Assembly: GCA_951406725.2 (NCBI GenBank)
Contig: OX597832.1
Location: forward strand, 64,852,001 to 64,916,000
DNA: 64,000 nucleotides
Direction: 5' to 3'
From: Octopus vulgaris
Lineage: Eukaryota
Both the position numbers and the translations under genes were made by a program. The notes beneath the pieces are model-generated. The model was not told where the DNA came from and ran no database searches. It saw only the letters and a list, made by a program, of their open reading frames with translations. Below, piece after piece: positions 21,030-21,529 of this stretch (positions are counted from its first letter, which is position 1; every line of letters starts with the position of its first letter).

Positions 21030-21080
21030 TATTCCCCATTGAGAAAGGCTAAAGAGCCAGAAGCTTGCATCAGAGAATCC
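21030..21080 (+). ncRNA. Degenerate minimal type I hammerhead ribozyme motif
   Basis: ATTCCCCA-TTGAGAA-A-GGCT(AAAG)AGCC-A-GAAG-CTTGCA-TC-AGAGAAT. U3/A8 replaces C3/G8, stem II is intact, A15.1 is mutated. Confidence 0.5.
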
Positions 21081-21332
21081 GATTAACGGAAGCACTGGGC
21101 ACATAGGGTATTTTCACATCTTTTACCACAAGAGAGAAATTCTTTGCCACAGTAACTACAGTAAATTTGTCCCAAAATGTGTCCCAAAGAGATTTTAACA
21201 TATTTTAACCTGAAGTTCGTTTGTTCTTCATAACTGCTTGGCGCTGACATTGCTATTTTTGCTCTGATGTTGACTTTTTTCATATTTCTATTTTTATTGA
21301 TAAACCTACGGCTTTGAATCTGCTCTCTTCGG

Positions 21333-21382
21333 TATATCCCACTGAGGAAGGCTAAAGAACCAGAAATGCGCATCTGAGAATC
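21333..21382 (+). ncRNA. Minimal type I hammerhead ribozyme motif, best-preserved copy
   Basis: TATATCCCA-CTGAGGA-A-GGCT(AAAG)AACC-A-GAAA-TGCGCA-TC^TGAGAAT. CUGANGA and GAAA boxes intact, palindromic stem III ATGCGCAT, AUC cleavage triplet; stems I and II carry mismatches. Confidence 0.65.
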
Positions 21383-21529
21383 CAAAAGGGGGCAGCACTG
21401 TACAGATATGGCGTTTTTACTGTTGCAGCGGACGTTTTCTCCATTGTAACTAAATGTGTGGTGCATGAAGCAAAATAAATACGAAAATATGTAAATATGT
21501 AAAACACCGAACAAAATACATTGAGACAC

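Follow-up and report, generated by a model that had tools for sequence, protein, structure and literature searches.

Introduction

Non-LTR retrozymes have been described from coral, mussel and amphibians, with units of about 350-390 bp in mussel (PMC7229834; bioRxiv 10.64898/2026.07.22.740005). A 2026 preprint ties these repeats to Penelope-like elements (PLEs) through pseudo-LTR (pLTR) homology and co-occurrence, an examination that, in the available text of that source, leaves invertebrates outside (bioRxiv 10.64898/2026.07.22.740005). PLE insertions are described as partly tandem, accompanied by an inverted copy that is truncated at its 5' end, extended by a 30-40-bp tail and biased toward microsatellites (PMC8557442), and in the account of the anole PLE the tail equals the distance between two internal reverse transcriptase (RT) start sites (PMC11167929). 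Our literature search found no paper describing hammerhead repeats in cephalopods, and the words 'hammerhead', 'ribozyme' and 'retrozyme' are absent from the main text of the 2026 octopus repeat annotation (PMC13282606).

Here we analyzed a locus in a 64,000-nucleotide stretch of the Octopus vulgaris genome (hereafter the window), in which an earlier sequence-only reading had seen paired hammerhead motifs and proposed a decayed, retrozyme-like insertion linked to PLEs. We consider it highly probable that the locus is a non-autonomous, PLE-mobilized hammerhead repeat that is dead here. A fuller description, which we regard as probable, is that of a decayed, dispersed non-coding repeat of ~330 nt with a predicted minimal type I hammerhead, copied by a PLE into a microsatellite and inactive today. 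Judging from its sequence, the family has the structural features that define metazoan non-LTR retrozymes, at the short-array end and with a predicted minimal hammerhead of the PLE type. The family may exist unnamed in Repbase, Dfam or the octopus repeat library of PMC13282606.

Layout of the locus

The two motifs 303 bp apart that had been proposed are indeed present. Their cores start at 21039 and 21342, both sit within a 98-nt direct repeat of 73% identity and the same 303-bp spacing, and a 25-nt core pattern, allowing at most 3 mismatches, matches the window at only three positions (21039, 21342 and 63583), with 0.00 matches expected from 100 shuffles. The upstream motif, HHR1 (21031..21079, forward strand), is degenerate, with a UUGAGAA core, GAAG in place of GAAA, A·A at pair 1.1/2.1 and 3 of 6 stem I pairs. 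The downstream motif, HHR2 (21334..21382, forward strand), carries CUGAGGA, GAAA, the palindrome AUGCGCAU and UC, together with an A·A at 10.1/11.1. Its two boxes had been called intact and its stem III palindromic, which holds, but in stem I only 4 of 6 pairs form, and stem II contains a C·A mismatch. The stem III strands of HHR1 and HHR2 would pair at 6 of 8 positions. Since pairs are broken in both motifs under the established hammerhead rules, activity at the locus is unlikely, and the copy is likely a fossil.

Predicted cuts after 21071 and after 21374 delimit the cut-to-cut monomer as previously proposed (21072..21374, forward strand; 303 nt, 38% GC). No special fold is left in it, as it folds no better than its shuffles (z -0.05; 40 shuffles). 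The locus lacks the two consecutive units with complete hammerheads used as a criterion in the text available to us of bioRxiv 10.64898/2026.07.22.740005, which lowers its standing as an active copy but not its membership in the family. A comparison with the Rfam hammerhead model, put forward earlier as a check, came back negative: the scan of positions 19000-24000 gave no hammerhead match at E<=5, and the 61 matches listed were nearly all to miRNA-type models over microsatellites.

The insertion begins with an inverted, 5'-truncated arm (20850..20996, reverse strand; blastn and nhmmer) that covers unit positions 18-182, including the 3' half of the hammerhead, and has 71% identity to the unit of locus L002 by blastn. 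This arm stops at the first of two 3' ends fixed in the family, beside a (GT)n/(GA)n microsatellite (20776..20849) that, from the flanking sequence, is the likely insertion target, and abuts the forward arm at 21000. The forward, main arm (21000..21451, forward strand; blastn and profile) runs from unit position ~296 through one whole unit to ~119, with a degraded 3' end. At ~1.35 units, the locus is not the array of ~300-bp units that had been proposed. The eight overlapping open reading frames (ORFs) span 30-152 codons, the longest running out of a (TG)/(TA) repeat and two others being mostly microsatellite translations, in agreement with the earlier view that no credible protein is encoded. 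No tRNA gene was found in the window.

Two further insertions in the window belong to the same family. One has the inverted-arm layout (63110-63747): its inverted arm (63110..63278, reverse strand) ends at the second fixed 3' end, at unit position 220, and its forward arm (63284..63747, forward strand) contains the degenerate hammerhead at 63583 and ends beside an (ATCT)n repeat. The other, recovered by profile search, is a short fragment covering unit positions 46-171, without a hammerhead (34704..34830, reverse strand).

A dispersed family with a closed unit

We searched a genome of 2.8 Gb in 227 contigs. The DNA search gave 42 matches from the best 40 scored of 403 candidates, with 66-84% identity excluding the window itself. 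An exact 29-nt core pattern has at least 11 matches in the genome, and a looser version allowing up to 2 mismatches has at least 360, with 0 for its control. Measured from one hammerhead to the next, stretches of 301-343 nt can be aligned colinearly between L002, L003, L008, L013, L016, L021, L025, L036, L046 and L131. These natural stretches align end to end, which makes the unit a closed one of ~330 nt; the 303 nt in the window reflect deletions. Median divergence from the commonest letter of each column is 15.7% in family A (57 of 58 copies) and 13.3% in its sister family B (27 of 30), and the two copies in the window differ from these letters by 20% and 29%. With ~16% divergence, the family is old. 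Together with the broken pairs in both window motifs, the dispersed copies and the closed unit substantiate the proposal of a decayed insertion of a short non-coding repeat.

The units contain no credible ORF or PLE frame, and they have the structure by which retrozymes are recognized, that is, a low-GC, non-coding unit in the short range of 150-450 nt with a type I hammerhead, here of variant core, at each junction. Like the metazoan non-LTR retrozymes described in PMC7229834 and bioRxiv 10.64898/2026.07.22.740005, the family combines a non-coding unit of this length, at 36-41% GC, and one type I hammerhead per junction with the presence of autonomous PLEs in the same genome. Unlike them, its A/B arrays stop at two hammerheads, its copies are diverged to the extent given above, and it is known here from DNA sequence. 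Its motif also differs from the canonical retrozyme motif: it is of the minimal PLE type, in which stem III is a palindrome and stem II is preceded on its 5' side by an unpaired base.

Hammerhead core and pairing across families

A spaced core pattern gave 88 genome matches, with 0 for its control; among them were other families (C, F and D) that share this layout and have unrelated flanking sequence. At the 3-8 pair, family A has U·G in 37, U-A in 7 and C-G in 6 of 58 motifs, counts that are biased upward because loci were chosen by BLAST rank or core patterns; among the 27 motifs from BLAST-found loci and the window, the corresponding numbers are 17, 3 and 3. Family B has U3-A8 in 24 of 30 motifs. 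Family D has U3-A8 in 20 and U3·G8 in 15 of 35 motifs, a sample that leaves out ten rows not fitting the 3' pattern, mostly an 8-nt stem III variant, and it shows A·A at 10.1/11.1. Conservation of the CUGANGA box, on which the sequence-only reading had staked its case, therefore held only in part, with U3·G8 far more frequent than C3-G8 in family A. Because U3·G8 predominates there, the canonical C3 of HHR2 is probably a later mutation. From the spread of stem III variants, the palindrome of HHR2 looks like the product of CpG decay in a CG-rich palindrome.

An unpaired A follows A9 in 54 of 58 family-A motifs, and an A stands between stem II and GAAA in 57 of 58 motifs in A, 28 of 30 in B and 35 of 35 in D. 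Of 37 motifs of families A, C and F, just 4 have the two bases next to stem II paired with each other. A pattern requiring a base other than A before GAAA had 25 genome matches (control 2), mainly from families G and H, which have A-U there. The extra A that had been noticed on each side of stem II is thus real in both places, but the two are best read as an A·A mismatch at 10.1/11.1. A reading as two independent insertions was set aside, since the sister families G and H show A-U at the same place. The unpaired A at 11.1 is common to five families.

The motifs resemble the minimal hammerheads of PLE pLTRs described in PMC4209133 in being of type I, in having an unpaired A or C after A9, a G-C pair opening stem II and a palindromic stem III, and also in the U3-A8 variant and in opposite-strand pairs 100-700 bp apart. 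They differ from them in having no ORF between or beside the motifs. Moreover, the PLE consensus given there has no base between stem II and GAAA, where an A is near-fixed in families A, B and D, and the 56 PLE motifs in Fig. S3 of that source include one U3·G8 core (Saccoglossus 1) and one AGAAA cell (PMC4209133). A U·U at 10.1/11.1 has been described (PMC3088659), including in axolotl (PMC7229834). The family-A core, with U3·G8 and A·A at 10.1/11.1, departs from the consensus at both places, and therefore the source element may have cut poorly.

The palindromic stem III is 85% paired. Across 37 motifs of families A, C and F, 84.1% of cells are paired, compared with 72.4% in shuffles and 20-50% in slid controls, a statistic inflated by related rows and by pattern-based picking, with the related rows inflating the shuffle control as well. 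Despite this inflation, the changes between families are plain. Each of the 6 stem I pairs, like the 3-8 pair, shows two-sided changes among these 37 motifs, and compensatory changes between families are found in stems I, II and III and in the 3-8 pair. Covariation of the stems, proposed earlier as a check, is thus seen across families with unrelated flanks. Minimum-energy folds of seven natural hammerhead regions gave no significant z-score and did not recover the hammerhead fold, an outcome that is expected for dimer-dependent motifs but lends the fold no support.

Insertion footprint of the family

A profile of 11 natural units, with the window unit and W63 left out, was run over 65 loci plus the window, 66 sources in all; L001, which is the window itself listed as a locus, was dropped together with ten duplicate loci before unit, arm, core and 5'-end counts. 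We found 119 arms in these 66 sources, the longest of 1.88 units. Hammerhead starts number zero in 34 arms, one in 71 and two in 14, and no arm has three. The tandem arrangement is therefore present only at its lower limit, as dimers in 14 of 119 arms, and long tandem arrays do not occur in this sample. The 3' ends of 81 of the 119 arms cluster at two sites ~35 nt apart, 48 at unit positions 172-200 and 33 at 210-232, and the 5' ends are spread over the whole unit. Arms meet in inverted 5'-5' junctions 28 times, in 27 of 66 sources, and in a 3'-3' junction once. Of 85 such 3' ends, 38 have a microsatellite no more than 45 nt away, compared with a background of 13-16% for random positions.

Partial tandems, an inverted 5'-truncated copy and an optional 30-40-bp tail are described for EN+ PLEs and MRC1-type derivatives, and two internal RT start sites with microsatellite or AT-rich targets for EN+ PLEs (PMC8557442, PMC11167929); the family is like them in each of these respects. 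Unlike EN+ PLEs, it has no RT or GIY-YIG frame. MRC1-type elements, as far as they are described, resemble their own autonomous family at the 3' end, a likeness not found here. Because the footprint matches the described marks of PLE insertion, we infer mobilization by PLEs: the footprint argues strongly that a PLE protein moved family A/B. The combination of an inverted arm, two fixed 3' ends and a microsatellite target, which was absent from the earlier reading, is the best evidence for the mode of movement, and with it the proposed link to PLEs is supported in the sample of 66 sources and 119 arms.

Search for an autonomous partner

No PLE frame was found beside A/B copies by tblastn with two PLE proteins over 90 hammerhead loci and the window at E<0.01, and a profile of 30 PLE proteins, applied to six frames of the window and 110 loci, had a single weak match, at L147 (iE 7e-4), that is not adjacent. 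An ORF with RT and GIY-YIG domains between pLTRs is absent; family A/B is not an autonomous PLE. PLE matches in L087, L155 and L180 were rejected as partners, as they adjoin copies of family D, not A/B; they look like neighboring insertions in shared microsatellites, L087 being the one checked by eye.

The genome does hold intact young PLEs, with 781-aa RT and GIY-YIG frames and direct pLTRs. Their hammerhead is of a different type, without unpaired bases beside stem II. A GIY-YIG family search of the genome gave 148 matches at 30 loci, which with 12 larger stretches make 42, and three natural units had no blastn match in these 42 (best E 0.08), which are mostly one young family, with older families barely sampled. 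The tie to PLEs is of another kind than that drawn in the available text of the preprint, which rests on pLTR homology and co-occurrence: here it lies in the footprint left by insertion, and the 42 GIY-YIG loci and stretches contained no homologous pLTR.

One young PLE family (L091:2245-4587, also L092-L097) has copies 95-99% identical, an upstream frame of 330-380 codons and a U3-A8 minimal hammerhead in its 3' region.

RNA template and proposed history

A peak of 5' ends at the cut site was sought and is absent. In a sample biased toward hammerhead-bearing loci, the 30-39 bin, which contains the cut site, accounts for 2 of 121 A/B 5' ends. Young family-D copies were selected by the sequence that immediately follows the cut; of these 30, 29 still have the GAAA box upstream of it and 0 start at the cut. 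Since insertions read through the cut site, their template is uncut or re-joined. Retention of the motif across families argues for the predicted cutting and in this way favors re-joining. Folded as circles, 6 of 10 natural units have z below -2 (A 1/5, B 2/2, D 2/2, G 1/1; 40 shuffles each), the units folding well when young or well preserved.

In family D, the insertions L129/L173 and L179 have different stem III variants on their two arms, and L225 differs at position 8. These differences hint at a mixed or multi-unit template, and a single monomeric circle would not give them.

Contigs of four runs (three guessed to be RNA, none recorded as such) matched positions 20850-21515 in short pieces, nearly all less than 95% alike and thus from other copies; among them was no piece spanning 20850-21515 and no joint from 21374 to 21072, and the one joint, in X13, traces to a different single copy that fits both motifs. 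For the family-D unit, no RNA run was listed as containing it. In the reports available, hammerhead mutants of the anole PLE inserted in vitro without reduction and RNA ending at the cut site was not observed (PMC11167929), and 8 of 9 Xenopus retrozyme dimers stayed uncut in vitro (bioRxiv 10.64898/2026.07.22.740005). Whether a circle served as the template is, in our judgment, an even call.

The history we propose would begin with transcription of a source copy bearing two hammerheads, which would pair via the palindromic stem III and cut, perhaps with help from protein. The monomer would then be re-joined into a circle. The protein of an autonomous PLE, with RT and GIY-YIG endonuclease, would nick AT-rich or microsatellite DNA, and reverse transcription would be initiated within the RNA, at unit position ~185 or ~220. 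From there it would run back across the cut site and cover up to ~1.9 turns, with a frequent strand switch leaving the inverted arm, and the inserted copy would decay neutrally.

Alternative explanations

PLE mobilization is also compatible with a non-autonomous element copied from uncut, linear multi-unit transcripts, with no circle and with the hammerhead as a weak, protein-gated or vestigial passenger. This is possible, though we lean against it. The reading of insertions through the cut site speaks for such a template, as do the family-A core (U3·G8 in 37/58 plus A·A at 10.1/11.1) and the differing stem III variants on the two arms of one family-D insertion, and so do the descriptions of unprocessed RNA as the main substrate of the anole PLE (PMC11167929) and of Naiad PLEs that form the same tandems without hammerheads (PMC8557442). 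However, families with unrelated flanks retain both the core and the pairing, implying that the fold was under selection in source elements. Moreover, young units are strongly structured when folded as circles (z -4.3 to -8.9), and a linear template would require another way to regenerate more-than-unit length.

Two other readings are less likely still. The locus could be pseudo-LTR debris left by an old autonomous PLE after 5' truncation had removed its coding part, so that a separate 330-nt element never existed. All structural hallmarks are indeed those of PLE ends, most minimal hammerheads in the available account of PMC4209133 are single motifs of truncated PLEs, and our family search scored the best 40 of 403 candidates. 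Upstream of the hammerhead, however, an arm enters the preceding turn of the same unit, to a maximum of 1.88 units, and the protein searches around these loci gave nothing by tblastn at E<0.01 (90 loci and the window) and the single weak, non-adjacent L147 match by profile. Because the unit is closed, the debris account is already largely refuted, and we consider it improbable. It is scarcely credible that the hammerhead likeness arose by chance within an ordinary SINE-like or satellite repeat. The missing Rfam hammerhead match and the seven motif regions without significant folding z-scores would suit this view, but they are set against compensatory changes in stems I, II and III and in the 3-8 pair between families, 88 genome matches of the spaced core pattern with 0 in its control, the lack of a tRNA gene in the window, and copies that are dispersed with PLE ends, not gathered in satellite blocks.

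A broader extension of the PLE-mobilized reading is that families A, B, C, D, F, G and probably H, several of them young, all bear the PLE footprint and replicate via RNA circles, five of them with a working A·A or C·A variant at 10.1/11.1, often with U3·G8, that Rfam and standard descriptors miss. We hold this to be tentative and rather unlikely. If true, it would supply direct footprint evidence of PLE enzymes moving animal retrozymes, and family D (mismatch) and family G (A-U pair) would form a ready natural test pair. For the PLE-mobilized reading itself, we value the locus as a pointer: the footprint argues for PLE insertion of animal retrozymes independently of the homology in the preprint, and young sister families allow this to be tested. 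The recurring 10.1/11.1 mismatch suggests that current descriptors underestimate hammerhead counts in such genomes.

Sister families and further repeats

Family D is young, with a unit of ~555 nt, 81-97% identity among the matches listed and 2500 first-look candidates. It has fixed 3' ends at unit positions ~242 and ~340, inversions and a long stem II. Its loci include L113:1500-2946, a trimer with 97% identity between units, and L105-L132, L153-L182 and L203-L232. Family G (L183:1342-1710, also L184-L187, L191, L193, L195, L197, L198 and L202) is likewise young, with a unit of ~369 nt, canonical C3-G8, A-U at 10.1/11.1, inverted arms and a circular fold of z -8.1. Family C (L135:2890-3470, L110, L137-L140) is old, with C3-G8, mostly C·A at 10.1/11.1, a CACGUG palindrome and a partial tandem ending in a TA microsatellite. 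Family F has a C·A mismatch and a CUGCAG palindrome, and family H an A-U pair and a longer loop II; these F/H hammerhead types were seen in few loci (L134:3025-3073, L147:276-324, L057:2381-2429 and L196:1500-1535).

Inverted-arm insertions in TA microsatellites at L068:2513-2782 and L101:5564-5840 are 72-81% identical to the 3' region of family D and, judging from sequence, probably represent another non-autonomous family. The window also contains an unusually long (AT)n-rich array of 2.2 kb at 9184-11438.
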